This document shows positions 21,477 through 39,226 of a stretch of 64,000 nt of DNA, piece after piece. A model generated the notes under the pieces. The model did no database searches. It was not told the DNA's origin and saw only the letters and a list, made by a program, of their open reading frames with translations. Source of the DNA: an uncultured Planctomycetia bacterium. Its GTDB lineage: Bacteria; Omnitrophota; Gorgyraeia; Pluralincolimonadales; Pluralincolimonadaceae. How positions within the stretch are numbered: position 1 is the stretch's first letter; every line of letters begins with the position of its first letter. The stretch covers positions 19,937 through 83,936 of the forward strand of contig CAZAEH010000003.1 of assembly GCA_964484255.1 (NCBI GenBank). The letters run 5' to 3'. The position numbers and the translations under genes were made by a program.

Positions 21477-23054
21477 TTGGCAGAAGTCCCGCTTACCAGT
21501 ACAAGAGAGAAGATCCCTTTTACTTCCAGCATTAATTTCAGGTTTATCCTGATATTCATACTGCTTGTGACATTCACCACTTTCCTTAGCGGGATGATCC
21601 TTATCTACCAGGGACAGAGTTCCCTTGAAGATGCCGTCCTCAAGAGGAACCTCACCGCGTGCGAGAACGTACGCAGCAAGATAGATAACTTCCTTCAGCA
21701 GGCCAAGTCTTCGGTCGAGCTCATGACCCTAATGCCCAGCATAAAGGATTTTGACCTCTTCCAAATAGACAAGATGATGTACGAGATCATCTCGGAACAT
21801 GAGATGCTGGATCCCGTGGCCGTACTTAACGAACAGGGCATAGAGATAGCTTCGCGAAACCCGGGTGACCAGAACAAAGACATGTCCTTAAGTGATATCT
21901 TCCTGAAATCCAAGAAGAAGAGCTATATATCGGATATATATTTTTCTTCAGACGGCCAACCTTTTGTGACTATAGCTTCCCCCATATTCGATTATGACAG
22001 TTACGGCAGGAGGATAGGCGTCCTTGTGACTGCGGTCAAGCTGCGCAGCCTTTGGCCTATGCTGGACCAGACCAAGATAGGCGAGAGGGGAATGATAATC
22101 GTGACAGACAAAAAGGGCAACCTTATATACAAAACAGGGGATACGGATACCGGTAACCTGTATAATGACAATACGGTGAAACTTGCCCTTGAGGGTAAGG
22201 CCGGAAGCGCTAATATAGGCGACATGCTGGTATCATACCTTCCGTTGTCAGGGAATATCAAAGGCGCTGTCGTAGTAAAGCAGCCTGCCCAGGAAGCGCT
22301 TTACGGCGTGGCGAAGATGAGGAGCCAATCCCTAATCCTGCTTATCTTGAGCATAATGGTGGCCATCGCAATAGGGCTGGTGCTTTCGAACAGCATGCTC
22401 GTATCGGTCAGGAAGCTGCTTATAGGTACCAAGATAGTCGGCGAAGGCGACCTTAACCACAAGATAGACATAAAGACCGATGACGAGATAGGCGAGCTTG
22501 CCAGGTCGTTCAACATGATGACCATTGAATTGAAGAAACAGAGGGAGAGGGCCATAACGGATGAGTTGACCCACCTTTATACGCATTCCTACTTCCTGGA
22601 GACATTGAAAGCTGAAGTGTACAGGGCGAAGAGATATAGGACCAGGTTGTCGCTTATGATGCTCGATATCGACCATTTCAAGTCATTCAACGATAATTAC
22701 GGCCACCAGGTAGGCGATGAGGTCCTGATCAAGATCTCGGATATGCTCAAGGCCAGTCTTAGGGAGTCTGACGTTGCTTCAAGGTACGGCGGCGAAGAGC
22801 TTGTAGTGCTTGCTACAGAGACGGACAGGGAAGGCATATACATATTGGCCGAGAGGATACGCAAGAAGATAGCCGAGGACGTTATAGTCGAATATGAGGA
22901 CAAAAAATTGAAAGTTACCGTCAGTATCGGGGTGACAACGCTTTCGGAGGAAGATATAAAGAAAGATATATTCCCCCATGATTTCCTGAAGCGGGTGGAC
23001 GTTGCCCTCTATCAAGCTAAGGACAAAGGAAGAAATTGCGTCGTCCAGATCTGA
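21477..23054 (+). CDS. membrane sensor diguanylate cyclase (periplasmic sensor domain-HAMP-GGDEF)
   Basis: TTG start after an AGAGGGGG RBS. Two TM segments flank a periplasmic domain of about 250 aa. HAMP region (IGELARSFNMMTIELKK). GGDEF domain with RYGGEEL in place of GG[DE]EF. Confidence 0.75.
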   Translation: MAEVPLTSTREKIPFTSSINFRFILIFILLVTFTTFLSGMILIYQGQSSLEDAVLKRNLTACENVRSKIDNFLQQAKSSVELMTLMPSIKDFDLFQIDKMMYEIISEHEMLDPVAVLNEQGIEIASRNPGDQNKDMSLSDIFLKSKKKSYISDIYFSSDGQPFVTIASPIFDYDSYGRRIGVLVTAVKLRSLWPMLDQTKIGERGMIIVTDKKGNLIYKTGDTDTGNLYNDNTVKLALEGKAGSANIGDMLVSYLPLSGNIKGAVVVKQPAQEALYGVAKMRSQSLILLILSIMVAIAIGLVLSNSMLVSVRKLLIGTKIVGEGDLNHKIDIKTDDEIGELARSFNMMTIELKKQRERAITDELTHLYTHSYFLETLKAEVYRAKRYRTRLSLMMLDIDHFKSFNDNYGHQVGDEVLIKISDMLKASLRESDVASRYGGEELVVLATETDREGIYILAERIRKKIAEDVIVEYEDKKLKVTVSIGVTTLSEEDIKKDIFPHDFLKRVDVALYQAKDKGRNCVVQI

Positions 23055-24328
23055 CCCGGTCTTTCCTGTCGATCGTTTTCATTACGGTTGCCCTATCCGC
23101 GGATTTTCCAGTTCCCGCCGATGTCATCATACGCGATAAAGTCCTGAAAAAAGCCGAGACTATACAGGGTATCGATTTCCCCAAGGGAACGCTTGTTTAT
23201 TTTACGGAAGCCGGAAGATTGCAGTACGCCTACCTTGGCTCAGACCAGCAGGTATCGGGTATTTTTTTTAAAAAGGGTACCTCGGTATATTTCAACGAAG
23301 CGGGAAAGCTCGATTACGCCTACCTTGGCGCAGACCAGCAGGTCTATGGGATACCATTTGCCAAGGGCACCTCATTGTATTTCAACAGGGCCGGAAAGCT
23401 TTTACATGCCGTCTTTGCTGCCGATGAAGAGGTCCAAGGGATATATTGCGCGAAAGGCACAAAAGCCGGTTTTTATGATTCCGGGAAATTGCAATATGCC
23501 ACATTGGCCAAAGACCAGGATATTCAGGGTATCGTTTGCGCCAAAGGTTTTCCCGCCGGTTTTTATGAATCCGGAAGACTGCAGTATGTTACGATCCCCG
23601 CAGATGTCGATATGGGCGGAGTAAAATTCAGGCAGGGGACTTACTTCGTCTTTTATGAATCCGGCAGTATAAAGAACGCGTATCTGGTTTCGCCTACCGA
23701 GGTGATGGGTATCACCTGCGCCAGCGGCCCAAGTGTTAGTTTTTACGAGAACGGGAAAGTAGATTGGGCGGTTCTCAATGAGATCAGCAAGGTACAAGGT
23801 ATCATGTGCGCCAAAGGTTCCACCATAGGTTTTTACCAGTCGGGGAAATTGCAATATGCCACATTGGCGGATGACCAGAACATAAACGGCGTATATTGTG
23901 CTAAGGGCAGTAAAGCCGGTTTTTATCTTTCGGGGAAATTGCAATTCGGAACACTTGTAACCAAGCAAAAAATAAACGGTATTCCCTGCGCTAAGTGCAC
24001 GGTCGCAGGACTTTACGAATCCGGGAAACTGCAATATGCGACACTAGGCGAAGAAAACGAGATAAGCGGCATACCTTGTGCGGCGAACACAAAAGTTGAT
24101 CTTTATGAATCAGGCAGCCTGCAATACGCTTCCCTGGCCAAAGACCACAAGATAGGAGAGACCTTTTTCATGAGGGACACCATAGTTGGCCTTGGAGAAT
24201 CCGGGAAATTACGCTATGTGATCTTGGGCCGCGACCAAGACGTGCAGGGGCACTTTTACCCGAAAGGTTCAAAGATAAGTTTCGACGAGAATGGTAAGCT
24301 CAGGGAAACCGAAAAACCCGCAGAATAA
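23036..24328 (+). CDS. secreted tandem-repeat protein (about 13 copies of a 30-aa unit)
   Basis: TTG start. Signal-peptide-like N-terminus (LTRSFLSIVFITVALSADFP). The body is a 30-residue period, consensus roughly KG(T/S)xxGFYESGKLQYATLAxDQxIxGIxCA. Near-identical 90-bp DNA repeats are visible, e.g. ggaaattgcaatatgccacattggc occurs at 23476-23500 and 23840-23864. Confidence 0.6.
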   Translation: MRRPDLTRSFLSIVFITVALSADFPVPADVIIRDKVLKKAETIQGIDFPKGTLVYFTEAGRLQYAYLGSDQQVSGIFFKKGTSVYFNEAGKLDYAYLGADQQVYGIPFAKGTSLYFNRAGKLLHAVFAADEEVQGIYCAKGTKAGFYDSGKLQYATLAKDQDIQGIVCAKGFPAGFYESGRLQYVTIPADVDMGGVKFRQGTYFVFYESGSIKNAYLVSPTEVMGITCASGPSVSFYENGKVDWAVLNEISKVQGIMCAKGSTIGFYQSGKLQYATLADDQNINGVYCAKGSKAGFYLSGKLQFGTLVTKQKINGIPCAKCTVAGLYESGKLQYATLGEENEISGIPCAANTKVDLYESGSLQYASLAKDHKIGETFFMRDTIVGLGESGKLRYVILGRDQDVQGHFYPKGSKISFDENGKLRETEKPAE

Positions 24329-24649: not shown

Positions 24650-27600
24650 ATGCTGAGCCGAAGCTTAATCAAGATTATAACAGTAATATTTACCGCGTCG
24701 ACGGTATTGGTAGTGTTCGTATCCTGTCCGGGCGGTGCGGAAGAATCTTCTCCTGTCGAAGAATTACAGGCGGGAATAGATTGCAGTAATCTCTCGCTTG
24801 AGTCAGCCCTGAACAAGCTTTATGAAGTTGACAGGGATATCCAGATAGCCAAACTTGCCTCCGATGCCGCCGTGCTTGAAATAAAGGCAAGGAAATTGGA
24901 TACTTTCCTTCCCAAGATCAGCATAGCGGGAAGCGTGATAAAACCATTCGACCTCTTCAGCGATCTTGACCAACAGACAGATCTTTTCTCGGAACAGCAA
25001 TTGGTTATAGAGATGTCTATTACTTCCGACAGCCTTAATTATATCTCCAAAGACAGGAAGAACTATGAGGCGAGCCTGCTTGAGATCAAACAGGCCGTAA
25101 CGGAAAGGACAAGGAAACTTATATCTGTATATTATGCGGTTGCTTCAGCTCAGGAAAATTACCGCATGAGCTGTGATAATGTAGAAACTGTTGAAAAAGT
25201 AATAGAGCTTATAAAGGGGAGCCCCGAATACACCGAAACAGAGAAACTTGAATTAAAGAATTATCTGGGCATAGTCAATGAAAGAAAAATAGGGGCGTTG
25301 AATACCCTTATAAATACAAGACGGGACCTCAGGGGATTATTGGGATTGGAGGATAACGATGACCTGGAGATCGTTGTCCAGGAACTTCCCGGCAATGTGA
25401 ACAAGGATCCGGCCTTCGCCGAAAAAGCGGAGATAAGGCCCACTGACTATACGCTTGATATAGTCAAGAAGAGGAGCGAGGAAGCTTCCGTATCGGCCCA
25501 TATAGGCACCAGTCCCCGCCTGAAGCTTGCCTCAACTACTATACTCGGGCTGGCGGAAGGTAAAGGTACCAGGTTTGAAAGGAAAGTTATAACCGACACC
25601 CAGCTGGAGTTATTCGTTACTGATTTCGGCCATTCGGAAGGCTTGAACCGCACGAAAAGTTTGGAATCACAGATAGCCAGGCTTGAGGTGTTAAAGGCTT
25701 CGGAGGACCTTGAGTGTGATGATCTTATGGGAAACGCGAAAATCTCCGACCTCAGCAAGAAGATAGATAATTACAGGGAGTATATAGCGAAAACAGAAGA
25801 TACACTCAGGATGCTTAAGGAGAAACTCTCGCTCCCGGTCATCGAAGTAATAAGGATTAGCGATAACCTTTACAAGGCCAAGTATGCATTACAGCAGGCG
25901 TTGAGCGATTATACGGTAACCTTGTCGAAGCTAAAAGGTGTCGAGATTAAGCCGGAAAATATGAGCCCGGCTTACCAGGACATGGATCTCGGGGACCTGA
26001 TATCAAGAGGAGAAAGAGCGGATCTTCTTACGGCGAGACAGATAGCCGAGAAGAGGATAAAGGTAGAGAAGGTGCGTATAGGTGCAGAGAGGGCCGGTTA
26101 TCTTCCCAAGCTTTACGGAGCGGCAGTACTTGAGAACGTGAACATAAACGGCACGCCGTCCAAGAATACCAGGGCTTTCCTTGCCTTGGAAGGCCGCATA
26201 CTTAACAACAAGGTCGGGGCAGCGGTAAAAGCCGCCAAGGCCGGGCTCAAGGAAGCCGAATACGAAGGCAGGGCGCTCCAGAACGCTGTTGCAGATGAGA
26301 TAATAAAGAATTATCTTCTTGTCCTGCGTTTCACCAACACACTTAAGAGACTCAACGAGATAAAAGAGCTTAAGAGCGGTCTTATAAACGATATGCTTGA
26401 GGACATGAGAAGCAAGAACACTAAATACACAAATTCCGACATACTTCCCCTCGTCCTACAGCAACTGGAAGTGGACAGGGAGATCTCGAATGTCGAATTT
26501 TCCTTGGCAGTGGTCGAATACAACCTCAAGAGATGGACAGGGATACCGCTTAACGAAACTATAACGGTGAAAGACCTGCCCTTGTTCGGCAGCGAAGAAG
26601 GGTTGTCTGATTTTAAAATGATGCTTAAAGGGAAGGTGGCGCCTTATTACGACGGGATGGCTTCCGTAAAACAGGCGCTTAGTTCTGTTGAAAGAAAGAG
26701 GGCCGGTGAGACCAGGGCCTTAGCCTATGAAGGGGCCATATGGCAGGTCAGGTATGAGACCAAGGGTTCCGATTATGACGGCTGGGAAGACCCTGATAAA
26801 CAGCTTTCATTTAGTGTCTCGATCCCATGGGGAGATCATGCCGAGAAGGTTGCCAGGTCCGAAGCCGCCAGGGACCGTATAAGATCTGAGATAGAATACG
26901 CGAAGAGCATGGATTCGTACGAGAAGGAAAGGTTCGCCGTGAAGACCGCCTACGATGCCTCAAATGACCTGCTCGGGGATCTTCGAAATAAAATGGAAAA
27001 TGCCGGTTCCCAGTTCAGGATAACGGATGAACTTTTCAGGTTCGGGGGAAGGACCAAGCGCCAATGGGCGGATGCCCGCCTTGATTATGTAGTTTCTCAG
27101 CTTACCTATGAAGAGGCGATCTTCGATAATTACTATGCCAGCGCCAGGGAGATACTTTTTGTAGAAAAAGATTCCAGACCGGAGGGCGGGGAAAAGATAC
27201 TTTTGTCGGGCCTCCAGGAGGCGCTGGATCTTGCTTTGCGCAACAGCCGTGAGATCAAAAAATACGAAGATGCCCTTGCGCTCGAGGAAGAGTCCCTTAA
27301 CTATTATAAGATGATAAGGGTGAACGGTTCGGTAAGCAAAGGTTATTATGTAATGGACAACAAGGGTTCTCAGAAACGAAAGACAGTCCAGACGACTGGA
27401 GGGGTTATTTCGGCGGAAGTGGACCTTGTGAACAATCTTATGGTCAGGAAACAGGAATTAAGGGTAGAGTTGGCCAGGAAAGACCTCGAACAGGCCAAGT
27501 TCGATCTTAACATAAGGGTGGTCGATTCATACTGCAATTACCTGGCCTCGCTTGCGGAGTACTCCCAGGTAGGCGGTGAGTACGAAAAACAGAAAGCTGT

Positions 27601-28498
27601 GCTCGCAGGGATCGAGGAGCTTTACACGGCGGGGGCGGTAGCCCACGTAGATTACCTCAAGCAAAAGGAATTTGTAGAAAGCCTCCTGCAAAAAACAATC
27701 GATGTCCGGAAATATTGCGAGGGTTACAGGAGCAATCTCGGTATAGTGGTTGGAGGGCTTGACCCCAGGTTCTCCGTAATGAATATCGAAGTATATGACG
27801 AATCATCCAAGAAGGTTATGTTGGCCGATAACTGTGATATAAAAGAAAGGCTTACCGCCGAACTCGGGTCGGCGAAGAAGGAGCTGGAAGTGCCGTTGCG
27901 CGCGGACCTGCTGAAACGGACCGAATGCAATATAGGAATGGCCAGGCTCGATACCGAGGCCATATCAAAGCAGATCAAGTCCCTGACATTCAATCTCGAG
28001 TATACTTATCTTACCGACTTTATGGGGGCGGTAACAAGGAATGAGGCCATATTCTCACGCTATAATTCCCTCTCGGAGTTCATATCCCTTAATTCCATGG
28101 ATAAGATATTCGATCCTGCCACGGCCACCAAGGCGAGGGTAGCTGCGTTAAAGGAAAAGATAACGGCCCTCAAGTCGAAATCGTACATGTCTGAGGTGCT
28201 CCAGAATGCCCTCAGGATCTTCACCGATTATAAGATGGCCGTTTTGGACTATGAGAATTTTGAAAAGAACGTATCCGTGCTCGAGGAGCGGATGAGCGAG
28301 CTCATGCGCGCTGAAGAGGCGACCGGGGACATGCCTGTCGTAAGGATCAGGGAGATAAAAGAGACCCTGCTGAACAATAAAATAAAGGATATACAGGCTT
28401 ATTACCATATGGTCAGTCTTATGAACGAGCTTGACCGGTACCTTATGAGGTATACAGCCAAGGGCATCGATTCATATATAACTTACGTGTCAAAATGA
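24650..28498 (+). CDS. giant outer-membrane-factor (TolC/NodT)-like lipoprotein, 1282 aa
   Basis: Lipoprotein signal with lipobox (…LVVFVSC). Repeated OEP-like segments (LSLESALNKLYEVDRDIQIAKLASDAAVLEIKARKLDTFLPKISIAGSV; DLLTARQIAEKRIKVEKVRIGAERAGYLPKLYGAAVL; LSGLQEALDLALRNSREIKKYEDALALEEESLNYYKM…) lie within extensive predicted coiled coil. It is about three times the length of TolC. AAAGGGG RBS; stop overlaps the next start (ATGA). Confidence 0.45.
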   Translation: MLSRSLIKIITVIFTASTVLVVFVSCPGGAEESSPVEELQAGIDCSNLSLESALNKLYEVDRDIQIAKLASDAAVLEIKARKLDTFLPKISIAGSVIKPFDLFSDLDQQTDLFSEQQLVIEMSITSDSLNYISKDRKNYEASLLEIKQAVTERTRKLISVYYAVASAQENYRMSCDNVETVEKVIELIKGSPEYTETEKLELKNYLGIVNERKIGALNTLINTRRDLRGLLGLEDNDDLEIVVQELPGNVNKDPAFAEKAEIRPTDYTLDIVKKRSEEASVSAHIGTSPRLKLASTTILGLAEGKGTRFERKVITDTQLELFVTDFGHSEGLNRTKSLESQIARLEVLKASEDLECDDLMGNAKISDLSKKIDNYREYIAKTEDTLRMLKEKLSLPVIEVIRISDNLYKAKYALQQALSDYTVTLSKLKGVEIKPENMSPAYQDMDLGDLISRGERADLLTARQIAEKRIKVEKVRIGAERAGYLPKLYGAAVLENVNINGTPSKNTRAFLALEGRILNNKVGAAVKAAKAGLKEAEYEGRALQNAVADEIIKNYLLVLRFTNTLKRLNEIKELKSGLINDMLEDMRSKNTKYTNSDILPLVLQQLEVDREISNVEFSLAVVEYNLKRWTGIPLNETITVKDLPLFGSEEGLSDFKMMLKGKVAPYYDGMASVKQALSSVERKRAGETRALAYEGAIWQVRYETKGSDYDGWEDPDKQLSFSVSIPWGDHAEKVARSEAARDRIRSEIEYAKSMDSYEKERFAVKTAYDASNDLLGDLRNKMENAGSQFRITDELFRFGGRTKRQWADARLDYVVSQLTYEEAIFDNYYASAREILFVEKDSRPEGGEKILLSGLQEALDLALRNSREIKKYEDALALEEESLNYYKMIRVNGSVSKGYYVMDNKGSQKRKTVQTTGGVISAEVDLVNNLMVRKQELRVELARKDLEQAKFDLNIRVVDSYCNYLASLAEYSQVGGEYEKQKAVLAGIEELYTAGAVAHVDYLKQKEFVESLLQKTIDVRKYCEGYRSNLGIVVGGLDPRFSVMNIEVYDESSKKVMLADNCDIKERLTAELGSAKKELEVPLRADLLKRTECNIGMARLDTEAISKQIKSLTFNLEYTYLTDFMGAVTRNEAIFSRYNSLSEFISLNSMDKIFDPATATKARVAALKEKITALKSKSYMSEVLQNALRIFTDYKMAVLDYENFEKNVSVLEERMSELMRAEEATGDMPVVRIREIKETLLNNKIKDIQAYYHMVSLMNELDRYLMRYTAKGIDSYITYVSK

Positions 28499-31400
28499 GA
28501 CCGGAGATGGCCAAGAACGGCAAAAAGGTAATTATAGTATTGATAGCGGTGCTGGCGGTGCTGCTTGCCATGCGTTCATGCCACAGGCCTGCCTTCAAGG
28601 CGTCAGTCCGTGAACCTTCTCCGGCCGAGCCTGAGAAGGCGATACCGGTTACCGCAGCGAATCCTTTGGATAATTCAAAGCAAAAGGATGGCCCGATAAA
28701 TGCCGGCGAGTTGGCAACTTTCATACTCGAATGGTCTGATCCTGGTACGGGCCTTGTGCCTACCATGATAGCCAAGTCAGGCGAGAAGAACCCCTTTGCA
28801 GAGATGTCTTATGTGTATCCTCAGGCTCTTGCCCACCAGAATATGGTTATGGCCGGTCAGCACGAATTTTCTTCCAAGGTTGCCGGGTTGTTGATGGAAA
28901 GAGGGGAGACTAGGGACATTCCCAACGGTCTTAACGTAAGGACCGGGTTGAGTGAAGATCCCCTCATAACGGCAGGGCCCAACGCCTGGTGGGGAATAAG
29001 TTTCATAAGGGAATTTCAATTGAGCGGTGATGAAAAATGGCTTGCCGCGGCTGAACGCCGTGCCGAGTTCCTTATAAATCTCCAGGCGGACAACGGGGGC
29101 ATAAGGAAATACCCGTTCCAGGGCAATACGGAATATTATGCTAAGTCGACAGAGGAGAACCTGGACTGTTATGTCCTGTTCGGGATGCTTTACGATATCA
29201 CCGGTAATGGTGTTTACAAGAATGCCATGGACAATATCCTTAAATGGATGGTATCGAGCGGCGTATACAACATAAAAGGAGGGTATTTTACAGCCGGTAC
29301 TTCTAAAGACGAGATAAATGATGTTTATGCTACTGACGCAAACGCACTTGCCATTATAATCCTGGGGCCCGAGGTCCTGGATTCGGAGTTTGGAGTGAAA
29401 TTCGGGGGGATCCGCACAAGCCGCAGGTTGCTTGAGAACCTGGAAAGGGCAAGGGTAAAAGTAGATTATTTGCATCCTAGCGGGGTAAAGGTCAAGAACG
29501 TAGAGGGATTCGATTTTACCGATAAATTCGGCAGGCCGGGCAGAAAACCTGTGCTGTCTCCGGAGTTCTCTTCCCAGGTTGCACTGGCTTATCTTGTTAT
29601 GGCCAAGCACGCAAGGGATAAGGGGGATAATGAAACCGCGGTGAAGTTTGTCGATACGGCAAAGTTATACCTTGATAACCTAGGGCGTATGGCCGCAAGG
29701 ATGGGTGTTTCCGCGTCGCTTCCTTATGCTTCCGAAAAAGGGATCAGGCGCTACCCATTCGATAACTGGCTTACTCCGCAGGCGGATGCCGATATCTCGG
29801 CCACGTGGACGTCATTCCCTCTCTCCGGGTTTAACCCGTTTGACCTCAACGGATTCGCGTTGCGCGACTCACTCAAGGATATTGCTAAGTGGATGAACGA
29901 ACAGGGCAAGGTGACAAAACCCTCCAAAGCGATAGTTATCCCGGAGCAGGAGAGGGTGATATCTGAAGCGGAACTTATCGCGCAGCGGGAGGCCAGCAGG
30001 GATGCCGCCCTCAAGAAACCCATAGTTTATTATAAGGTCCTTTACGACCAGGTCCTCAAGGATGCTACGATAGCCAGGAAGAGGGCCATAGCAGTCCTGA
30101 TGACTAGCTATAATTGCTGGTTTGACGGGGTGTTGGATACGCAAAAACGGGATTATGATGTTATAGGTGTTGACGGCGGTTTCAAGATAATTTACAAGAA
30201 GTTCTCAGACCTCCCGGAGCCCCTGAGCAAAGCTATCAGGTCGGAATATGCCTATTTCGACGATTCGACCGGAATCAAATGGAGGATAGCACCGAAGTAC
30301 AACCTGCGCCTGGATGGTAATTATAAGCCTTATTATGCTTTTGAGATAGACGGCGACTACAACATAGTAAGGCAGTTCTCTTCCGAGAACGACTTGCCTG
30401 AGGCCAACAGGGAAGACCTTAAGAACCAGGCCCAGCAGTTCCAGTCCGCAAAAGACCTGCCAGAGGGCCATTTGATAGCCAGGTATTTTACAGCCCTTGA
30501 AGTTGACGCGGATATGAATATACTCCAATATTATGATTCCGTAGAAGACCTGCCGGGCCTTGTTTCTAAAGTACCTATTACCGAACAGGAATACAAGAAA
30601 TATGTAAACGCGCAGGACTGGCAGAGGGCAGACCTGATATCTGCCGGTGTGGTCCCTGACGACAAGGGCATGCTTGCTACCCAGGAACGCGGCATGTACT
30701 ACGCCAGGGTCCTTGGGCTTGATGAGACAAGGCGATTACGGGTGGGCGGCGTTTCGGTCAAGAGCGGACAGGAAATAGTCATGGGTACCAAGTTCAACCT
30801 CACGAATTGGAGGACGAGCGAGACCTCGAAGTTGAACGCCGTGAAATATGAGCGGGGCCTTATCGAGGGCATGGTCATAAAGCCAAGGAAAGAATTCACC
30901 GGGAGCAGACCTACCCCTACGCAGCCGTTATGGATATACCTCGGCAATGACGTGATAGCTTCGGAGACAAAAGAATTCAAGGAAAGGCTGCTTGAACTGC
31001 TCAAAAGGGTCAGGGAGGAGAAGGATGCGCAGACCCGCCTCGAACTGATCGAACAGTATGACCGCCTTTCCAACGAATTGGCCTGGTATGACGACGACGG
31101 GTTTATCCACGTAATATATTATGGTGCAAAAGCAGCCGAAAAAAGGTTAGGCGAATTCGAGGTGGCAAAAGAAAGGGCTGAATCCACCCTAAGGAGTTAT
31201 GAGTCCATACTGGGCAAGGACGAATTCGGACGAGACCTGCGTGATGCTTCGGGCAGGGTCTGGCTCAAGGTGGTCAATGAAGCTACCGGTAGGGTCCTTT
31301 ATGTGGAGGTCTATGATATTGCCGGTAACCTTGAGACCATATATTCCGAGAATATACAGATAGACCCGCTTACAAAAGTCGTTACTTCTGATATCAGGAC

Positions 31401-34400
31401 GGATATCGAATACGACAAAGACACGCTTCAGGTGGTGGGCGGCCATACTTATCGTACGGATGAGAACGGAGAGTGGCTTTCCGATTTATCCGAGAGCATC
31501 TTCAAAGGTTACACCCCGGATAAGAAATATTTCGTCTCGGAAGTACATGTATTTGCCAGAGATGAAGACGGGAGGATAATATTCGAGGACGGCAAGGCAC
31601 GGTACACAAAGAAAATAGAATATTATACGCCGGAAGGTGATATATCCGCGCAGATAGTCAAAAACATAATAACCATAGTAAAATACGGGCCCGACCAAGA
31701 GGTCACCAAGGAAGTCTTTCTTGAATCGCCCGGCAAGACTTTATCGGATGAGGTCCCTAACCTTGAGAATCTGACCCAAGGTCTCGCGTGGGTACGCCGT
31801 TACAAGACTACCGGGAAGATCATGAATTTCAAGGAAGCATTGACCAAGTCGCTTACGTCCTTGCCCGAAGGTGAAAGGGAGAGGCAGGCTATACTTATAC
31901 TTAACAGGCTTGGCGCAGAGAAGGTAGGCAGGGTCAGCGACAGCCTTGTACTGGAGGAGAACGAGGTAACAAACAACCTCATCGGTGACCCCAACGCTCC
32001 GGGAGAGACGCCCTATTTCGTTTTCTATGAACCTGGGGACAGTCTTGGCAGGCAGAGGTTGATAGTCCGCGGCGGCACTATAGAGGTCCCGGTAGATTGG
32101 ATAGCCGAGACCGAAATACCGGCAAAGACCCTGACGTTCAACCTTGCGGGAGAACTTGTGTCGATAAGCGATGTCGACAACTCTGTCCGCGCAGATTCGA
32201 TACTCTCTCCCAAATATATAAAGAGAATGGAGCCTTTGGGCATATATGCCGATACCCTGTTGCCGCAGATGAAGAAGAGGATATTCAGGATGGTGACCGG
32301 GGAAGACGGGCTTCCGCATTTCACCAATACCGTAGCCATAACAACGGTCAGTTATATGATACCGGATGACGTGCTTGGGAGGGAATTGGTGAACGTCAAG
32401 TTCGTAATGCTCGGCGATGAGACGACATTACATAAAGGAAGCAAGCTTAAGCTCAAGAAGAACATGTTCGGCAGGGACACCCTGCTGGAATCCTGGAAGG
32501 ACGACAGAGGGGAAGACCGCACCCGGGCCATAGCCAAGAAAGAAGATACAGTCATCTATGAGTGGTACAAGGAGGGCCTGGAGGTAGACGAGTTAAGGGA
32601 ATTGCTGAAGTCCGAGTACGGGAAGCTGATCAAGCGAAAGGCGCTTGATGAGGCAATGAATAATATAGAAAAAGCCCCGTTCGGGACACTGCCCGGTTAC
32701 CATATAATAGAGCCAGGCGGACGCGTCGGAGAGATCAAATATTTCTCCGGAACGCTCGAGTATCCGCGCAGCGTATTCAGCCATCCGATGATCAAAATCC
32801 CTTATGAACCTGAGGTGAAACCGTTCAAACTTCCTGACGGACCTCCTATAAGGGGCGTCAAATACGGCGTCTTGAATTCCGACTACGCTTTTTACGATGT
32901 CCATTCCCTGAGCGGGCAGCTGATCGTGCTCGAGCGCCGCTTCATAATATTAAGGCTTATGAACATACTCCCGATACAGGGAGGGAGGCAGACGGAATAT
33001 TATGATCCGCTTGTCCCGTATTCATACCTAAGGCCCATAAAGATAGAAAGATATTTCAAACCCGGTACCCAGCCGGAAGGTACGCAACCGGGTACTCAGA
33101 TAGTAGCGGTTTTCCTCGGAGATGCCAGCGTTTACCATCGCAACGGATGGCAGACGCAGACATTCCTCGAACGCAGGCCGTTCGATATCGAACACTGGAT
33201 AAGGTCTGACTACGAGTTTGATGACAACGGTGTGTATAAGTATAAGAAGGAGCATATTGAAAGCAGCTCAGTATACCTCATGAAGACCATAAGATGGCAG
33301 AAACCCCTTCTCTCTGCCGTGTTATTTGCGGGTGCGCTCTTCATGTCCGGATATATATCCAGAAGGAGACTGAAAGCAGGCAGGACCCGCAGGATAAAAG
33401 TTGCCGAGGATGAAGCAAGGGTACAGGCGCCGCCGAAAGGCGCCATAGCGCCGTTTAACAAGGCCTTGCTGGAAAGATCGAACGTTCCTGAAGAGGTCAA
33501 GAAAGCCTGCATAGATGTCTACGAGGGGAATAAACCTCCGTCCGTGCTTTTTGCCGTGGTCATGGAAAAGTTCCGTCCTTTACTGGAAGAACGTTTCCGT
33601 GGTTTTGGCGCAGATCCTTCAAGGCATACCGCCGGTATAAATGTCATAATAAAGAGGATAGCCGACAGGATAGGGCGCGAGGAGATAATCCTCGGTAACC
33701 TGTTTGCGGTTGAGGCGAGGGAGTTTGAGAAATGGTCGGCCAAGAACGGAAGCGGGATCAGGCTGTCAGGCCTTGGGAATAAGCCGGATGAACTCGCGCT
33801 TGTGGCGCTGTTCCGCCTGATATTTGACGAATCCGTGGAATTCAGGGCGGCGGTGCCAGGTTTCAGGAATTACCTGCTTGATAAATCGCTTGGCATACTG
33901 CGTTCCGGAAAAGGGCCCGATGTATTGAAAGAGATCCGAAGCGATGTGCAGGTGTTCATAGAAGCTTTGAGGCCCGGATATGATAAGAAACTTGGCCTCA
34001 TAAAGGAATATATATTCACTTATGACGACATGAACGACCTTTTCGAAGGCAAGAGGCCGGGATTCATAACTTCTTTCGCTAAACTGGCGGGAGCTTCCGC
34101 GGAACAGAAACTTTTGTTCCTGGCGACAAAAGGCGGCAAGGAGCCCTCATCGGACCCGAAGTCTTATAAGAGCTATGCTTGGATGAAGACATTCCCGGAC
34201 AAGGCCGGTATACCGCAATTCGTCGATAACTTGCGCAGGTTCTGGGAGTTCCTAGTACCGATATTTTCCGTTGTTACCCTCGGCGGAGCGGCTATAGCCT
34301 TGAAGCTCTTGCCGTTTGCCGGGAGGATTGAGCAGCTGTCCGTCCACCTTGTCGGGATTCTTTCTCCGATTGCGCGTTTGTCCCCGAACGTGTTGGCCGT

Positions 34401-37400
34401 GTTCATAGAGATAACCCTCTTGATCCTGGCCGGAGTAATGCTGACGGTATTATTAATGAAACGGAGCCTTGGCAACTACAGGCCGGCTCACCTTGCAAGC
34501 GCGGAAAGCAGCGAGATAAGACGCTCTACCAGGCTGTTCTGGGTGATGTTCTTTTCCGCATCGTACCTGTGGGGCCTGTTCAGCATATTCGTGATAATTT
34601 GGACGGTCAGGATAATAATCAAACTTACGTTCGTGAACGCGGGCTGGGGCTTGTTCATCAACTCAAGCGCGCTGCTGCTTACGTTTACTTTCATACTTTC
34701 CAGTTTCTTCTCCCTGTTCTACATAATAATAGCCCTTATAGGTTTTTACCGGGGAAAGAGGGAAGGGGTCGGCCAGGTCATATCATGGGGCCAACTGAGA
34801 AGGAAATTCGGGTTATCGATGCAGCGTTTCTCGGATGTGATGATGCCCTCAGGGGGGCAGGCTTCCGGCCGTGCTGATGAAACGTGGAAGTCCTATTGGA
34901 ACGCCATGATAAAGGAACTCCATGATTACTATATAATAAGCGGAAGAGAGAAAGAGTCGCTTGTCTATTCATCCGGTAATCCCGCTCCGAAAATTGACAG
35001 GCCGCCGCGCGCCGAAGAGGCCTCGGAAAGGATAAGGATCTATATTAACAGTTGGCTCATGGAACTGCCCAAGGCGGAATCCTGGACGGATCTGCCTTCA
35101 CTGACGGCCATGATAACCGCTTTTAACGAACCTGTCAGTTTCACGTTCGATGAGCTCAACGGTTGCGACAGGGGCGCCGAAGTCACGAGGCTGAACCACC
35201 TGATAGGTTTTTACAGGCCCCAATGGGAAGAGTTTGTCAACAGGCTTGGCAGCTCCGATCTGGGGCAATTTGTGACACGGGAGCAACTAAAGCTGTTATT
35301 CGGCCTTAAGAGGCTCCCGGAAGGGCTGCCTGAACAGCTTAGGGAAAAGATACGCAAGTGGGCTAATCTTACCGTCCAGTGTGTTGAGAAGACGGTCGTG
35401 GAAGTATACAAGATACGGGACGCTTTTGCTATGTACGCCCGTATCTGTTACCCCGGGTTTTCCGACGGAGAGATAGAACGCATGGTTTCCGAGAAGGTCC
35501 AGATATTGCTCAACTATGAGGGGTATCATAGCCCCGCGACCAAGGATTCGGACAGGATAGCCTTGAGAAGATTAATGAAAGAGATGCCGAAGCTCAACGT
35601 TTATTGGTCCGCCAGCGATGCAGATTACACGTCCGGGGAAGACGAAACGGCCGTTGCCTATTTCAAGGGCGGCGACTGCGGCCTGCACAGGTATGATGAG
35701 GCTTCCGGCAGGATAGAACTTATAGAGACCGCGCCTTTTGTAGCGCCCGTTAAAAAAGGTAAGCCGAGCGGCCTAAACCAGGCCTTGCCTTTCATAAAAG
35801 GCGAGACCGTACTTTTCTTCGATGCCAACTGTTCTGTAAGGGTAGAGGATGCCGTAAAGATACCGGTGGCATTATCGGAGTTCAGGAACGATCCCGCTCT
35901 CGGAGAGGTCCTGTTCGCGGAGTATATATTCAACAAGAATTACTCATGGATATCTCAGGCGATAGGTTTCAACGAGGAGACGTTCGTATCCGTTACGCAA
36001 CGCACCCTGAATATATTCCAGGCCTGCGGTTTTTACGGCCATAGTGCGATCATAAGGACCGATATGATAACAGCTGCGGGAGGTTTTCCGCAGGACTACA
36101 TATCAGAGGATATACTGTTGGCTACATCTCTTTGGAAGAAAGGTTTCAGGACCGCTCACAAGGAGTACTTGCTCTTCGGTAAAGGCAGGGAGACCTCATA
36201 TTTTACCAGCCTTGTCCCGCTTACAAAATGGGCCATGGGATCTTCCGATGCCGCCATAGGCAGGGTAATCCCCGGTATATTGGATTCCGAGAAACTGCAC
36301 GTAGCCCAGAAGTTCATGCTTATGTTCGGGTTCTCGTTCTTCTACCAGACTCCGCTAATGTTTATAATCAATTTTCTTTACCTGTGGTTGATGATATGCT
36401 GGGGTATAAACGGTTTCATGGCCGTGCCGTATCCTATAGTATTCGGTATATTGGGGCTGCTTTTCAACCAATCTATAACCGCAACGGGTATCGCATACCT
36501 GCTTGAACATTTTGGATTCAGGAAATCTTTCTCGGCATATTTGAGGCTGGTTGCAAAGAACCATTTCTTCTACGCATCGGTCATACCGGCGTATGCCTTC
36601 GGGTTCCTCGCCGGACTTAAAGGGAAGGCTATATTCATAATAAGCCCGAAAGGGTGGAACCTCGGCCATTTACCGCTTAAGATCATCTGGGGGGAGAAGA
36701 GGGACATACTCAAGGCTTCCATGTTCAGCACGATAATAGGCCTGCCTTTGGCCTATGTGGCGGTGGCGACGAAGTCAATGCCGTTGTGGCTTAGCCCGTT
36801 CATACCGTTCCTGCCTTTTGCCATAGTTGCCTTGATGTATACCGCCGGGGTCAAATGGAACAAGATAGGAATACCGTACCTTAAGAACTGGCGCGACGAG
36901 GTAGTCCCTGACGGGGATATAGGGAAGATGTCGGTGATCAAACTGCAGATGATATATGCCGTGGTCCTTCTCGTCTTCACGGGAGTGGGTTTCGTCATGT
37001 GGGGCCTGATATTCTCATCACTGGCGGTCAAGGCGTTGTTCATATTCTCGGCTCTGTACATAAGTACGACGTTGTCTTTCATAATAATGCCGCTTTTTGC
37101 CCATTCGCAGCCTATAGCACTCTTCAAAGAGTTGACGATCTCGAGGTTCTGGAACTTTGTGATAATGCCGTTGCTGTTTGTTTGTGTTGTCCTGGGCATC
37201 AGTTCTATAGCCTCGGGACCGGCTACTGCGTCTCCTGAATCGGTGGTCTATACACTGCTAGGTATATCTTCCCTGATAGGTTGGGCGTTGCTGAAATGGA
37301 AACTCAGCGGTTATACTCGATTGAATAAATGGCTGAAGAATAACCTGCAAGGCTACCCGGCTGCTTCTTCGGTCCAGAAGTCCGATCTTATGGACGACAT

Positions 37401-37854
37401 GTATTTTTCGCACCAGGAACTCATACAGAGCGACAGGCAGGCCGAGATAAGGTATAACAGGGTACTGGGCAAGGTAAAAGCCGTGTTCATATTTACTATC
37501 CTGTTGACACTCCTGCTCTATTTTGCCTCAGAGTTCAACGCGAAATGCTATTCTCACTGGTTATGGGTTTTTGTGGTGTTAGAGGCAGCGTATATGCTAA
37601 TCCTGAACGTAGAGCATACCTCCGATGACAGGGTCTACCTGGGCAAGTTTTACAGCAGCGTGATCATCAATGATTTTAACAGGCTTAATGAGAACGTCAG
37701 GGCAATGGAAGATATCTGGAAGAAACTGGACCGCGCCTACAAAGCCAAGCTTGTGAGGATCTATGAGGATGAGGTGAGAGCCAAGAAAGCGGTCACGATC
37801 TATATGTCCAGGTGTATAAAGGCGTTCTCGACAGACTTCCAGAAGATTACCTAG
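28495..37854 (+). CDS. 3119-aa multidomain membrane protein: N-terminal anchor + periplasmic GH8-like region + polytopic processive GT2 (cellulose-synthase-like) glycosyltransferase
   Basis: Single 9.36-kb ORF, ATGA-coupled to the upstream gene. N-terminal TM at aa 12-27. GH8-signature-like YATDANALAIIIL at about aa 280. TM at about aa 1610. Two TM clusters flank a cytoplasmic domain. That domain has K-x-x-GLNQAL, an F-F-D-A-N-C D-x-D equivalent, an S-E-D…KGFR TED equivalent, and an L-T-K-W-A-M-G QxxRW equivalent, in the spacing seen in BcsA/chitin/hyaluronan synthases. Confidence 0.6.
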   Translation: MRPEMAKNGKKVIIVLIAVLAVLLAMRSCHRPAFKASVREPSPAEPEKAIPVTAANPLDNSKQKDGPINAGELATFILEWSDPGTGLVPTMIAKSGEKNPFAEMSYVYPQALAHQNMVMAGQHEFSSKVAGLLMERGETRDIPNGLNVRTGLSEDPLITAGPNAWWGISFIREFQLSGDEKWLAAAERRAEFLINLQADNGGIRKYPFQGNTEYYAKSTEENLDCYVLFGMLYDITGNGVYKNAMDNILKWMVSSGVYNIKGGYFTAGTSKDEINDVYATDANALAIIILGPEVLDSEFGVKFGGIRTSRRLLENLERARVKVDYLHPSGVKVKNVEGFDFTDKFGRPGRKPVLSPEFSSQVALAYLVMAKHARDKGDNETAVKFVDTAKLYLDNLGRMAARMGVSASLPYASEKGIRRYPFDNWLTPQADADISATWTSFPLSGFNPFDLNGFALRDSLKDIAKWMNEQGKVTKPSKAIVIPEQERVISEAELIAQREASRDAALKKPIVYYKVLYDQVLKDATIARKRAIAVLMTSYNCWFDGVLDTQKRDYDVIGVDGGFKIIYKKFSDLPEPLSKAIRSEYAYFDDSTGIKWRIAPKYNLRLDGNYKPYYAFEIDGDYNIVRQFSSENDLPEANREDLKNQAQQFQSAKDLPEGHLIARYFTALEVDADMNILQYYDSVEDLPGLVSKVPITEQEYKKYVNAQDWQRADLISAGVVPDDKGMLATQERGMYYARVLGLDETRRLRVGGVSVKSGQEIVMGTKFNLTNWRTSETSKLNAVKYERGLIEGMVIKPRKEFTGSRPTPTQPLWIYLGNDVIASETKEFKERLLELLKRVREEKDAQTRLELIEQYDRLSNELAWYDDDGFIHVIYYGAKAAEKRLGEFEVAKERAESTLRSYESILGKDEFGRDLRDASGRVWLKVVNEATGRVLYVEVYDIAGNLETIYSENIQIDPLTKVVTSDIRTDIEYDKDTLQVVGGHTYRTDENGEWLSDLSESIFKGYTPDKKYFVSEVHVFARDEDGRIIFEDGKARYTKKIEYYTPEGDISAQIVKNIITIVKYGPDQEVTKEVFLESPGKTLSDEVPNLENLTQGLAWVRRYKTTGKIMNFKEALTKSLTSLPEGERERQAILILNRLGAEKVGRVSDSLVLEENEVTNNLIGDPNAPGETPYFVFYEPGDSLGRQRLIVRGGTIEVPVDWIAETEIPAKTLTFNLAGELVSISDVDNSVRADSILSPKYIKRMEPLGIYADTLLPQMKKRIFRMVTGEDGLPHFTNTVAITTVSYMIPDDVLGRELVNVKFVMLGDETTLHKGSKLKLKKNMFGRDTLLESWKDDRGEDRTRAIAKKEDTVIYEWYKEGLEVDELRELLKSEYGKLIKRKALDEAMNNIEKAPFGTLPGYHIIEPGGRVGEIKYFSGTLEYPRSVFSHPMIKIPYEPEVKPFKLPDGPPIRGVKYGVLNSDYAFYDVHSLSGQLIVLERRFIILRLMNILPIQGGRQTEYYDPLVPYSYLRPIKIERYFKPGTQPEGTQPGTQIVAVFLGDASVYHRNGWQTQTFLERRPFDIEHWIRSDYEFDDNGVYKYKKEHIESSSVYLMKTIRWQKPLLSAVLFAGALFMSGYISRRRLKAGRTRRIKVAEDEARVQAPPKGAIAPFNKALLERSNVPEEVKKACIDVYEGNKPPSVLFAVVMEKFRPLLEERFRGFGADPSRHTAGINVIIKRIADRIGREEIILGNLFAVEAREFEKWSAKNGSGIRLSGLGNKPDELALVALFRLIFDESVEFRAAVPGFRNYLLDKSLGILRSGKGPDVLKEIRSDVQVFIEALRPGYDKKLGLIKEYIFTYDDMNDLFEGKRPGFITSFAKLAGASAEQKLLFLATKGGKEPSSDPKSYKSYAWMKTFPDKAGIPQFVDNLRRFWEFLVPIFSVVTLGGAAIALKLLPFAGRIEQLSVHLVGILSPIARLSPNVLAVFIEITLLILAGVMLTVLLMKRSLGNYRPAHLASAESSEIRRSTRLFWVMFFSASYLWGLFSIFVIIWTVRIIIKLTFVNAGWGLFINSSALLLTFTFILSSFFSLFYIIIALIGFYRGKREGVGQVISWGQLRRKFGLSMQRFSDVMMPSGGQASGRADETWKSYWNAMIKELHDYYIISGREKESLVYSSGNPAPKIDRPPRAEEASERIRIYINSWLMELPKAESWTDLPSLTAMITAFNEPVSFTFDELNGCDRGAEVTRLNHLIGFYRPQWEEFVNRLGSSDLGQFVTREQLKLLFGLKRLPEGLPEQLREKIRKWANLTVQCVEKTVVEVYKIRDAFAMYARICYPGFSDGEIERMVSEKVQILLNYEGYHSPATKDSDRIALRRLMKEMPKLNVYWSASDADYTSGEDETAVAYFKGGDCGLHRYDEASGRIELIETAPFVAPVKKGKPSGLNQALPFIKGETVLFFDANCSVRVEDAVKIPVALSEFRNDPALGEVLFAEYIFNKNYSWISQAIGFNEETFVSVTQRTLNIFQACGFYGHSAIIRTDMITAAGGFPQDYISEDILLATSLWKKGFRTAHKEYLLFGKGRETSYFTSLVPLTKWAMGSSDAAIGRVIPGILDSEKLHVAQKFMLMFGFSFFYQTPLMFIINFLYLWLMICWGINGFMAVPYPIVFGILGLLFNQSITATGIAYLLEHFGFRKSFSAYLRLVAKNHFFYASVIPAYAFGFLAGLKGKAIFIISPKGWNLGHLPLKIIWGEKRDILKASMFSTIIGLPLAYVAVATKSMPLWLSPFIPFLPFAIVALMYTAGVKWNKIGIPYLKNWRDEVVPDGDIGKMSVIKLQMIYAVVLLVFTGVGFVMWGLIFSSLAVKALFIFSALYISTTLSFIIMPLFAHSQPIALFKELTISRFWNFVIMPLLFVCVVLGISSIASGPATASPESVVYTLLGISSLIGWALLKWKLSGYTRLNKWLKNNLQGYPAASSVQKSDLMDDMYFSHQELIQSDRQAEIRYNRVLGKVKAVFIFTILLTLLLYFASEFNAKCYSHWLWVFVVLEAAYMLILNVEHTSDDRVYLGKFYSSVIINDFNRLNENVRAMEDIWKKLDRAYKAKLVRIYEDEVRAKKAVTIYMSRCIKAFSTDFQKIT

Positions 37855-39226
37855 TGTTGTAGCTTTCCTTCAGGACTTCGTGATAGTAAAGCCAATCGTC
37901 ACTAACCTTCTTCATAGCGCTATAGAGGTTCCTGTAATCATCATAGATGTCGCATTCGAACTCTATATTACGCCTTCCGCTTAAGAAATTGGCGAACAGC
38001 TTGTAGTTCATCTCTTTACGCAGGAAGTTCTTCTTTTTAAGGGCATAGAAGAGAGAGCCGTTGCCCTCGAAGCAATTCATTATCCTGACCCATTCGCAGG
38101 CTATGAAGATGCAATTCTTATAGCTTCCAAAAAGATCGATAGTATCGCAATCGATAAATACGCACGATTCCAGTTTACTCGAAGGCTTTATCTTCTTGCT
38201 CCTGACGAAATAATTGCCGTATTCATCCGGCTTAGCTATTTGTGCAGTAAGTTTTCTCAAAAGTTCCAGGTAGGTCATTATATTCGACGCCCAGTCTATC
38301 CAGTATCCTTTGGCTACCGCGCCGCCTACGCTTATCTCATATTGCTGCAGGCATTCACGCATGGCCAACTGTATCTTTGAGAGGGCTTTTTTGTTGAGGA
38401 CAAGGGATTCGCAGACAAGTTTATTGAAGCTCCATTCAGTTGCGTTCAAGTGGGTGATGAAGTCCTTGTTCTTTTCCTTTGAACAGAAAAGATCAAGAGC
38501 ATTTTGGAGCTTGTCTATGCCTTCCTTGGTCATAAAAAGCTGGAAAGTATTTGCCAGCGTCATGTTCTTTCCGAATTTGGGTATTAATTTCTCGTCAAAG
38601 GTCTTCTCGTAGAAGCATGAAATGGAGTTGTCCTCTCCGAGTTTTGCCGTTCCCAGGCTTCCCAGAGCCTTGTTTATCTGGACGGGAGTGAAGAGCATGG
38701 AAGCGGTATTTTTGTTAAGGGATTTGAGGAGCCCGCCGATATCTATATCTGAGTAGTCGAAATACTGGTCTATGGGTAATATTACTACCGTATTTTTTAA
38801 AAGCGGGATACTTTTTGCTATGCAGGGAAGAAGCATATCCGGCGCCCTGCCTTCGGGGAATCTTATGCTTGCCTTTGACGGGGTCCCGAACTCATAAGAG
38901 AGGGGGAAGATCCTGGTGGCCAATCCGGCGTCATGTATGTATATAATAGTATCGAAGGAATCGAGCTTTTTCTTTGACAGGAGTTTTTTTATGCGCTCGT
39001 GCGTCCTGAGGTAACCGGTAAGGTTTCCCCTGGTCTGTCCGAGCTCCGCCATGCCTATAAGCTCGACCTCTATTACCTTGTTGTATTTTTCCCTTAGTTT
39101 CTTTTTGAAGAACTGCCTTAGATCAGGCGAGAATTCAAGTTTGTCGTAGGAATTCAATACAAGAAGAACGCGGTCCGCGACCTCGTTCTTGACCTTAAGG
39201 TTTTCACTGCAATTCGTATTAGCCAT
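37847..39226 (-). CDS. hypothetical protein with NDP-sugar pyrophosphorylase-like motif (lower-GC gene)
   Basis: 459 aa, K/N/F/Y-rich, from visibly AT-richer DNA than its neighbours. Contains HDAGLATRIFPLSYEFGTP, resembling the G-x-G-T-R-L-x-P-L-T motif of sugar-1-phosphate nucleotidyltransferases. No convincing RBS at the annotated ATG, so the start is uncertain. Its 3' end overlaps the giant gene's 3' end by 8 nt. Confidence 0.4.
   Translation of the reverse strand: MANTNCSENLKVKNEVADRVLLVLNSYDKLEFSPDLRQFFKKKLREKYNKVIEVELIGMAELGQTRGNLTGYLRTHERIKKLLSKKKLDSFDTIIYIHDAGLATRIFPLSYEFGTPSKASIRFPEGRAPDMLLPCIAKSIPLLKNTVVILPIDQYFDYSDIDIGGLLKSLNKNTASMLFTPVQINKALGSLGTAKLGEDNSISCFYEKTFDEKLIPKFGKNMTLANTFQLFMTKEGIDKLQNALDLFCSKEKNKDFITHLNATEWSFNKLVCESLVLNKKALSKIQLAMRECLQQYEISVGGAVAKGYWIDWASNIMTYLELLRKLTAQIAKPDEYGNYFVRSKKIKPSSKLESCVFIDCDTIDLFGSYKNCIFIACEWVRIMNCFEGNGSLFYALKKKNFLRKEMNYKLFANFLSGRRNIEFECDIYDDYRNLYSAMKKVSDDWLYYHEVLKESYNTR

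Follow-up and report, generated by a model that had tools for sequence, protein, structure and literature searches.

A six-hairpin barrel fused to an Fks1-like synthase in a giant Omnitrophota membrane protein: a candidate glycan-processing module

Introduction

What might a six-hairpin barrel be doing ahead of a glycan synthase, within one and the same polypeptide? The question is raised by a stretch of 64,000 nucleotides (nt) from an uncultured bacterium that is labelled Planctomycetia in GenBank and is placed in the Omnitrophota by GTDB (assembly GCA_964484255.1, contig CAZAEH010000003.1, positions 19,937 to 83,936 of the forward strand). In this stretch, which we refer to as the window and whose own coordinates are used throughout, the list of open reading frames (ORFs) and their translations places a giant protein of 3119 amino acids (aa) on the plus strand at 28495..37854. 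A sequence-only reading had marked nt 28675-29400, near the N-terminus of this giant, as a periplasmic domain with a signature of glycoside hydrolase family 8 (GH8), in which one Asp had become Asn, and had likened it to BcsZ, the GH8 enzyme of cellulose operons.

Synthase-dependent exopolysaccharide systems nearly always include a periplasmic glycanase, the exact job of which is debated, and synthases of the Fks1/callose type, familiar from fungi and plants, have to our knowledge hardly been explored in bacteria. [quoted passage not shown] We find that aa about 66-460 of the giant fold into an (alpha/alpha)6 barrel of a family that has distant homology to GH76 and is neither GH76 nor GH8, a statement about fold and family that we consider nearly certain. 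The barrel is predicted to be extracytoplasmic, and its role in chain processing is weighed below.

Results and Discussion

A six-hairpin barrel distantly related to GH76

The interval marked by the sequence-only reading lies wholly within the ORF of the giant and covers only the first ~60% of a domain that spans aa about 66-460 (28690..29874, +) and ends at ~nt 29874, as delimited by structure prediction, Foldseek, Pfam and homologue searches. AlphaFold2, run on a domain alignment of 23 sequences (A3), predicted 12 long helices across this region, with a predicted local distance difference test score (pLDDT) of 95.1 and a predicted template modelling score (pTM) of 0.95. An earlier run on a three-sequence alignment had a pLDDT of 51 and was too weak for use, although GH76 and AGE folds were indicated even then. 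Likewise, a PDB search with an alignment that included PilZ and coiled-coil parts (A2) was dominated by coiled-coil matches, and was repeated with the domain-only A3.

Foldseek comparison with the PDB returned alpha/alpha toroids exclusively, with template modelling (TM) scores of 0.52-0.71 and identities of 10-15%. They comprise AGE-type epimerases (8h1l, TM about 0.62-0.63), GH88 (2zzr, about 0.60), 5z3a, which we take to be a GH15 enzyme (0.52-0.60), the GH76 enzyme BcGH76 (TMt 0.67) and the methylmannose polysaccharide hydrolase MmpH (7qsj, TMt 0.71). The last of these has the top TM score, and was dropped as a specific relative of the barrel since it is one more generic (alpha/alpha)6 hydrolase, whose neighbours are GH15- and GH125-like (PMC9883506). 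In Pfam, every match of the barrel belongs to a six-hairpin or alpha/alpha-toroid family: Glyco_hydro_76 and, more weakly, C5-epim_C and Pec_lyase on the giant itself, and likewise weakly GH88, GH127, GlcNAc 2-epimerase, LanC and GH47 among its relatives. The (alpha/alpha)6 barrel that had been anticipated from the sequence alone is thus borne out by the model, by Foldseek and by Pfam.

HMMER, run exhaustively over 1.84 billion cluster representatives, retrieved 308 homologues at E<=1e-3, 110 of them at E<=1e-10; the representatives stand for clusters at 50% identity, and 308 is a lower bound on family size. Members with a named organism come mostly from Omnitrophota or the PVC group. In the open-access literature on bacterial GT48 (glycosyltransferase family 48), on FKS1 homologues and on Omnitrophota giant proteins, we found nothing describing this protein, its family or the fusion.

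The frame itself is well supported. In Candidatus Omnitrophica bacterium UBA6215, a contig matches the window at 95% protein identity and encodes an orthologous giant of 3121 aa; a scan for related loci with a single protein turned up this near-identical locus alone. Between the two, the domain has a ratio of nonsynonymous to synonymous substitution rates (dN/dS) of 0.08, and the plus frame is therefore coding and constrained. An antisense ORF of 277 aa (28777..29610) was weighed as a competing gene and dismissed, given the strong purifying selection on the plus frame and its hundreds of homologues.

A conserved core of three carboxylates

Conservation was counted over 117 homologous domains, aligned locally, and was also read from alignments A2 and A3. 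Two candidate catalytic carboxylates are present in all 117: Glu220 in S-T-E-E-N (29152..29154, +; family form S-T-E-x-N), which is also invariant in A2 and A3, and Glu357 in S-P-E-F-S-S-Q (29563..29565, +; family form S-x-E-[WF]-[TS]-x-Q). They lie at the N-termini of inner helices 6 and 10 (model residues 154 and 291). A third acidic residue, Asp281, is kept in 116 of the domains and marks the N-terminus of inner helix 8 (model residue 215); it belongs to the motif A279-T280-D281-A282-N283 (29329..29343, +), whose A279 and T280 are almost as conserved. Further near-invariant positions are an acidic residue at 155, G161, N163, W165, N222, G268, D340, Y411, W425 and N447-P448.

In six-hairpin enzymes, catalytic residues are found at the N-terminal ends of the inner barrel helices. 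In the AlphaFold2 model, Y108, G161-P-N, E220, D281 and E357 are each found in the initial turn of an even-numbered helix. Model and alignment together show what is expected of a six-hairpin toroid, namely 12 helices, arranged as an inner and an outer ring, and conserved polar residues where the inner helices begin.

Proteins in which the barrel is fused to a synthase retain E220, D281, E357 and D340. They differ from free-standing members by a change of His221 to Glu and by their residue at position 283, which is Asn in all nine of them as compared with 15 of the 108 others. Across the 117 domains this position is occupied chiefly by Tyr (25), Asn (24), Gln (20) and Phe (15), and never by Asp. 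Asn283 is hence a conserved marker of the synthase-fused clade.

Predicted topology places the barrel outside the cytoplasm

The protein opens with a basic stretch, MRPEMAKNGKK, which leads into an N-terminal signal-anchor, transmembrane segment 1 (TM1; VIIVLIAVLAVLLAM, aa 12-26, 28528..28572, +; Kyte-Doolittle peak 2.46). A hydropathy scan places the next membrane span, TM2, at aa 1604-1622 (33304..33360, +), directly followed by the basic flank RRRLKAGRTRRIK, and detects none between the two. By the positive-inside rule, this flank would lie on the cytoplasmic side, and aa 27-1603, including the barrel between TM1 and TM2, would most likely face the periplasm, as the sequence-only reading had supposed. 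The giant would thus be composed of TM1, ~1580 extracytoplasmic residues, TM2, a cytoplasmic linker and, set between two transmembrane clusters, an FKS1-like glycosyltransferase; in the hydropathy profile, the two clusters enclose aa about 2100-2600. The extracytoplasmic region beyond the barrel (aa about 461-1603, 29875..33303, +) is conserved in orthologues and contains no recognisable domain: it matches no Pfam family at E<=1, and aa 506-1603 match no PDB sequence at E<=1.

The partner resembles Fks1 rather than a cellulose synthase

Which polymer-making enzyme does the barrel accompany? Residues 2172-2642 (35008..36420, +) correspond to an FKS1-like (GT48-type) processive glycosyltransferase in both Pfam and the PDB. 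The Pfam family Glucan_synthase (PF02364) is matched at 1.6e-26 and 93 bits (cut-off 37.2) over profile positions 4-502 of 819, and Glyco_trans_2_3 at 2.7e-8; in the PDB, the domain finds the cryo-electron microscopy structures of FKS1 at 2.2e-12 over about 420 aa and BcsA at 1.6e-7. Because the Glucan_synthase and FKS1 matches exceed the match to BcsA, the partner is, on this evidence, Fks1-like and not a cellulose synthase, and the notion that the locus is equivalent to a cellulose operon finds no support.

The fusion of the barrel upstream of a processive glycan synthase is not peculiar to the window. Three orthologous giants (P0004, P0006 and P0003) are collinear with it over the full length at 44-49% identity, and P0004 also matches Pfam Glucan_synthase. 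In two larger proteins, P0007 and P0008, the barrel likewise precedes the synthase region, with identities of 31-35% and 22-27%. The barrel-synthase fusion is old. P0007 measures 6278 aa, with the barrel at aa 1835-2260 and the synthase at aa 4227-4730, and P0008 measures 5775 aa, with the two at aa 1246-1553 and aa 3963-4829. The barrel is also found inside other proteins of 3000-7600 aa (P0033, P0037, P0038, P0071 and P0073).

The gene directly upstream (24650..28498, +) encodes a 1282-aa protein with repeated TolC-type OEP domains (Pfam OEP 7.6e-25, five stretches), and its stop codon overlaps the ATG of the giant (ATGA). It is a likely candidate for the dedicated outer-membrane conduit of the giant's system. 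This protein is about three times the size of TolC, and the arrangement is kept in UBA6215 (L001 5955-9803). The barrel is thus predicted to be extracytoplasmic, shares its polypeptide with an FKS1-like glycosyltransferase and adjoins a TolC/OEP gene, which is the location to be expected of a periplasmic glycanase partner.

Further upstream lies a dCache-HAMP-GGDEF diguanylate cyclase (21477..23054, +; Pfam GGDEF 1.5e-43, dCache_1 and HAMP), which is syntenic in UBA6215. Together with a MORN-repeat protein it occupies 21477-24328 (+), directly upstream and in the same orientation. The GGDEF gene may provide an input of cyclic di-GMP (c-di-GMP) to the gene string; the giant itself yielded neither PilZ nor any other c-di-GMP-binding domain. 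The order GGDEF, MORN, 1282-aa OEP protein, giant and a 459-aa gene on the opposite strand is common to the window and UBA6215.

Relatives outside the giants

Two groups of homologues carry the barrel outside such giants. A large group of about 650 aa combines PilZ, one transmembrane segment and a coiled coil with the barrel that follows, PilZ being cytoplasmic and the barrel extracytoplasmic by this order. Judged from it, these proteins would be c-di-GMP receptors that are connected through the membrane with a glycosidase-like domain. Examples are P0154, P0153, P0155 and P0013 (for instance L002 8001-9872), and the name given in Omnitrophica metagenome-assembled genomes (MAGs) is only 'PilZ domain-containing protein'.

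Members of the second group, of about 600 aa, have a signal peptide or anchor, as do all free paralogues. The genes of P0163 and P0164 stand in a string that encodes a sugar-binding protein, a GH94 enzyme, two CBM30-like proteins (carbohydrate-binding modules, CBMs), a TPR/GH2-like protein, the barrel protein and a GlmA-like GH35/42 enzyme. The best PDB matches of this GH94 are cellobiose and chitobiose phosphorylase (1e-126); 8rf9 and 8rf0 surfaced only as relatives of GH94. P0156 has a C-terminal CBM_11 (4e-7) and adjoins another GH94 as well as LacI regulators. Such loci resemble those used for oligosaccharide utilisation, with a beta-linked glycan as the apparent target. The loci of the paralogues lie at L003/L004 1659-12204, L008 266-10725 and L005 5472-9599. 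As far as gene content and domain order can tell, the relatives place the family among extracytoplasmic enzymes that would act on beta-linked gluco-type glycans, with a link to c-di-GMP.

A proposed role in processing the nascent chain

How, then, might the barrel contribute to the making of the polymer? We envision that it would cleave or remodel the glycan chain made by the C-terminal FKS1-like glycosyltransferase of the same polypeptide, after this chain has passed the inner membrane and before it exits through the TolC-like protein encoded directly upstream. Such a role would be akin to that of BcsZ, AlgL and PslG in synthase-dependent exopolysaccharide systems, or to that of the hydrolase and transglycosylase partners of fungal Fks, from which the barrel differs in descent. 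Conceivably, the giant shares with BcsZ, AlgL, PslG, PelA and PgaB an extracytoplasmic polymer-cleaving module that is combined with an inner-membrane synthase, an outer-membrane exporter and c-di-GMP genes nearby. The substrate is probably a beta-linked polymer of the glucan type. We favour the combined proposal, that is, the barrel as described and acting on the nascent polymer of its own synthase, by a modest margin over its negation, and we consider the chances that the barrel is catalytic at all to be roughly balanced.

A more far-reaching version can be put forward only tentatively, and we would sooner doubt it than believe it. It holds that the barrel founds an undescribed GH family, a GH76-related barrel with a catalytic Glu/Asp/Glu set instead of the Asp-Asp pair, that the fused clade represents the integral chain-processing module of a bacterial, FKS1-like (GT48-type) giant exopolysaccharide synthase exporting via the 1282-aa TolC-like protein, and that in the PilZ paralogues a periplasmic glycanase is directly controlled by c-di-GMP from the cytoplasm.

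Several observations weigh against the processing role. The family contains no characterised enzyme. The placement of E220, D281 and E357 in one shared cleft would follow from their helix-start positions rather than from coordinates. Adjacency to GH94 occurs in just two independent locus types, two other contexts being uninformative. Moreover, the fused clade departs from the free-standing members at positions that hardly vary in the rest of the family: Asp109 is replaced by Ala, Val, Pro or Thr, His423 by Asp, Trp285 by Leu and Trp358 by Phe or Met, and in orthologous giants Arg267 has given way to Ile, Ala or Val. These changes point to a remodelled substrate site; the losses among them could mean altered specificity or lost hydrolytic activity. 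Finally, the best Foldseek E-values (5e-9) belong to AGE-type epimerases and isomerases and not to hydrolases, and Pfam reports on the giant, next to Glyco_hydro_76, weak matches to C5-epim_C (9.5e-5) and Pec_lyase.

These last observations, together with the loss of Asp109, His423 and the two Trp residues, are also what speaks for the main rival explanation, by which the barrel would be a non-hydrolytic module: an epimerase or isomerase acting at the polymer level, a lyase, or a glycan-binding guide without catalytic activity that passes the nascent chain on from the synthase to the conduit in the outer membrane. The three invariant carboxylates remain in the fused clade, however, and purifying selection on the clade is strong. 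In AGE enzymes, the catalytic residues include His, whereas the near-conserved His423 (73 of the 117 domains) is an Asp in precisely this clade. Members of the AGE superfamily such as cellobiose 2-epimerase, glucose 2-epimerase and YihS do share the 12-helix barrel, at 10-13% identity, but they are cytoplasmic and take small sugars as substrates, whereas the barrel of the giant is predicted to be extracytoplasmic and its invariant residues are carboxylates. The paralogues in catabolic loci with GH94 and CBMs, in turn, fit depolymerases. On balance, we regard a non-hydrolytic module as unlikely, though well ahead of the alternatives that follow.

Relation to GH76

Might the barrel simply be a GH76 enzyme, that is, a true alpha-1,6-mannanase or a transglycosylase of the Dfg5/Dcw1 type? 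GH76, which includes Bacillus circulans Aman6/BcGH76, Bacteroides BT3782 (4mu9) and fungal Dfg5/Dcw1, is the sole family with significant sequence similarity to the barrel. Pfam Glyco_hydro_76 scores 33.6-34.2 bits on the giant (gathering cut-off 25.9) and is matched by nine of 23 family members, the best PDB profile matches of the domain are GH76 chains (1e-8 to 4e-8), and the two share, beyond the (alpha/alpha)6 fold, a conserved x-x-x-W-[WL]-G helix start at the same place. A partial orthologue, P0001, has even been named 'glycoside hydrolase family 76 protein' by the NCBI pipeline.

The similarity is only partial. It extends over positions 89-207 of the 366 in the profile, roughly a third of the model, and identity to GH76 structures is 13-16% in Foldseek. 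In BcGH76, D124 acts as the nucleophile and D125 as the acid/base, in keeping with the titles of PDB entries. In the profile alignment to 5agd_A (BcGH76 D125N, '...NPFNDNIMWW'; '...NPFNDNIMWWAMG'), which stands opposite '...vhsGPNaWlGia' of the family, D124 and D125 fall on G161 and P162. These belong to G161-P162-N163 (28975..28983, +) at the start of inner helix 4, where 111, 82 and 92 of the 117 homologues have Gly, Pro and Asn, so that the adjacent catalytic Asp-Asp pair of GH76 has no counterpart in the domain. Conversely, the residue of BcGH76 aligned with the invariant Glu220 is a Cys, and the barrel's own Glu220, Asp281 and Glu357 are absent from GH76 at the aligned positions examined. 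A genuine GH76 enzyme is accordingly very improbable. Because the dyad aligns with Gly-Pro, Glu220 aligns with Cys and only about a third of the profile is aligned, the automatic name of P0001 overstates the relationship. Fungal GH76 members work on a wall that is built by the GT48 synthase Fks1; a parallel to the giant would be speculative.

Relation to GH8 and BcsZ

The peptides on which the sequence-only reading was built do exist. The signature-like segment YATDANALAIIIL is in frame at aa 278-290 (nt 29326-29364, ~4 nt from the earlier estimate of about 29330-29368), and both NAWWGISF (aa 163) and GGIRKYPFQGN (aa 201) are found in the giant. What does not stand is their resemblance to GH8. 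We scored the pattern A-[ST]-D-[AG]-D-x2-[IM]-A-x-[SA]-[LIVM]-[LIVMG]-x-A-x3-[FW], a PROSITE-type pattern that was validated on BcsZ of E. coli MG1655, which agrees with it at every one of the 12 specified positions (aa 114). The giant reaches six of 12 at aa 279, practically by A-T-D-A alone; four other 19-mers of the giant equal this score and 50 19-mers reach it in those stop-free segments of the window that measure 150 aa or more, and the likeness is thus at the level of chance. The surroundings, described as rich in Trp and Gly, have 2.1% Trp against 1.8% in the whole protein, and Gly is modestly raised (10.3% against 7.1%).

Could the domain nevertheless be an endoglucanase of the BcsZ/CelA type, with its signature Asp mutated to Asn and fused to a cellulose synthase? 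The A-T-D-A motif does agree with the first four positions of the signature, and GH8 enzymes are (alpha/alpha)6 barrels as well, a fold that is shared with many unrelated GH families. Yet neither the giant nor its N-terminal 502 aa matches PF01270 or any other GH8 model of Pfam or NCBIfam at E<=1, and PF01270 is matched by none of 23 family members. The control, BcsZ, scores 5.3e-162 on Pfam GH8, and the test therefore works. No GH8 chain appeared at E<=10 in three sequence or profile searches of the PDB, and no GH8 structure among the top 50 of Foldseek; hhalign of the A3 family profile with BcsZ gave a probability of 0.14% (E 0.42), and BLASTP with BcsZ an E-value of 0.16 over 23 aa. Since Asp is never seen at position 283, no substitution by Asn is apparent, and 'ATDAN' reads as the Asp281 motif of the barrel family rather than as a GH8 motif with a decayed Asp. 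BcsZ, moreover, is encoded by a separate gene and partners BcsA, whereas the barrel is fused to an FKS1-like synthase. At the level of sequence, the reading as GH8 has been refuted, and we give it next to no credence.

What survives of the earlier interpretation, then, is an extracytoplasmic (alpha/alpha)6 domain fused to a synthase; kinship with GH8/BcsZ, the Asp-to-Asn change and the cellulose-operon equivalence fall away. Its suggestion of altered catalysis fails in the form of a lost GH8 Asp and persists in another, in that the domain of the giant lacks the GH76 dyad as well as Asp109, His423 and Trp285/358 of its own family. That the motif is a chance occurrence in a poorly conserved linker without functional feature can practically be dismissed: the GH8-type motif as such does no better than chance, but the fold is predicted with high confidence, the family has 308 cluster representatives and invariant residues, and dN/dS is low.

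Precedent and implications

A precedent for one giant polypeptide that polymerises and processes a beta-glucan by means of fused domains of the six-hairpin type is offered by Cgs/NdvB, the cyclic beta-1,2-glucan synthase. This giant membrane protein combines GT84 with cytoplasmic alpha/alpha-barrel processing domains (GH94 and GH189). The protein described here differs in that its barrel is predicted to be extracytoplasmic and its transferase is GT48-like.

The main interest of the locus lies in a bacterial Fks1-like synthase that has such a barrel as part of its own chain, and in the PilZ-coupled paralogues of the barrel. If the domain is active, it would represent a new family of carbohydrate-active enzymes with at least 308 cluster representatives, and the coupling of polymerisation and trimming could be studied in a single polypeptide. 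For annotation, both the 'GH8 signature' and the automatic name 'GH76 protein' are misleading labels for this barrel family.

Neighbouring gene and public records

The 459-aa ORF at 37847-39226 (-) converges on the giant, whose 3' end it overlaps over 8 nt. Neither Pfam nor NCBIfam offers a match to this ORF, and its position is kept in UBA6215 (L001 19158-20537). The closest partial orthologues of the giant, P0001 and P0152 (65-78% identity in BLASTP), carry the labels of Dehalococcoidales MAGs, whereas the 95% match of the window is an Omnitrophica MAG; this may reflect an inconsistency of binning or taxonomy in public records.

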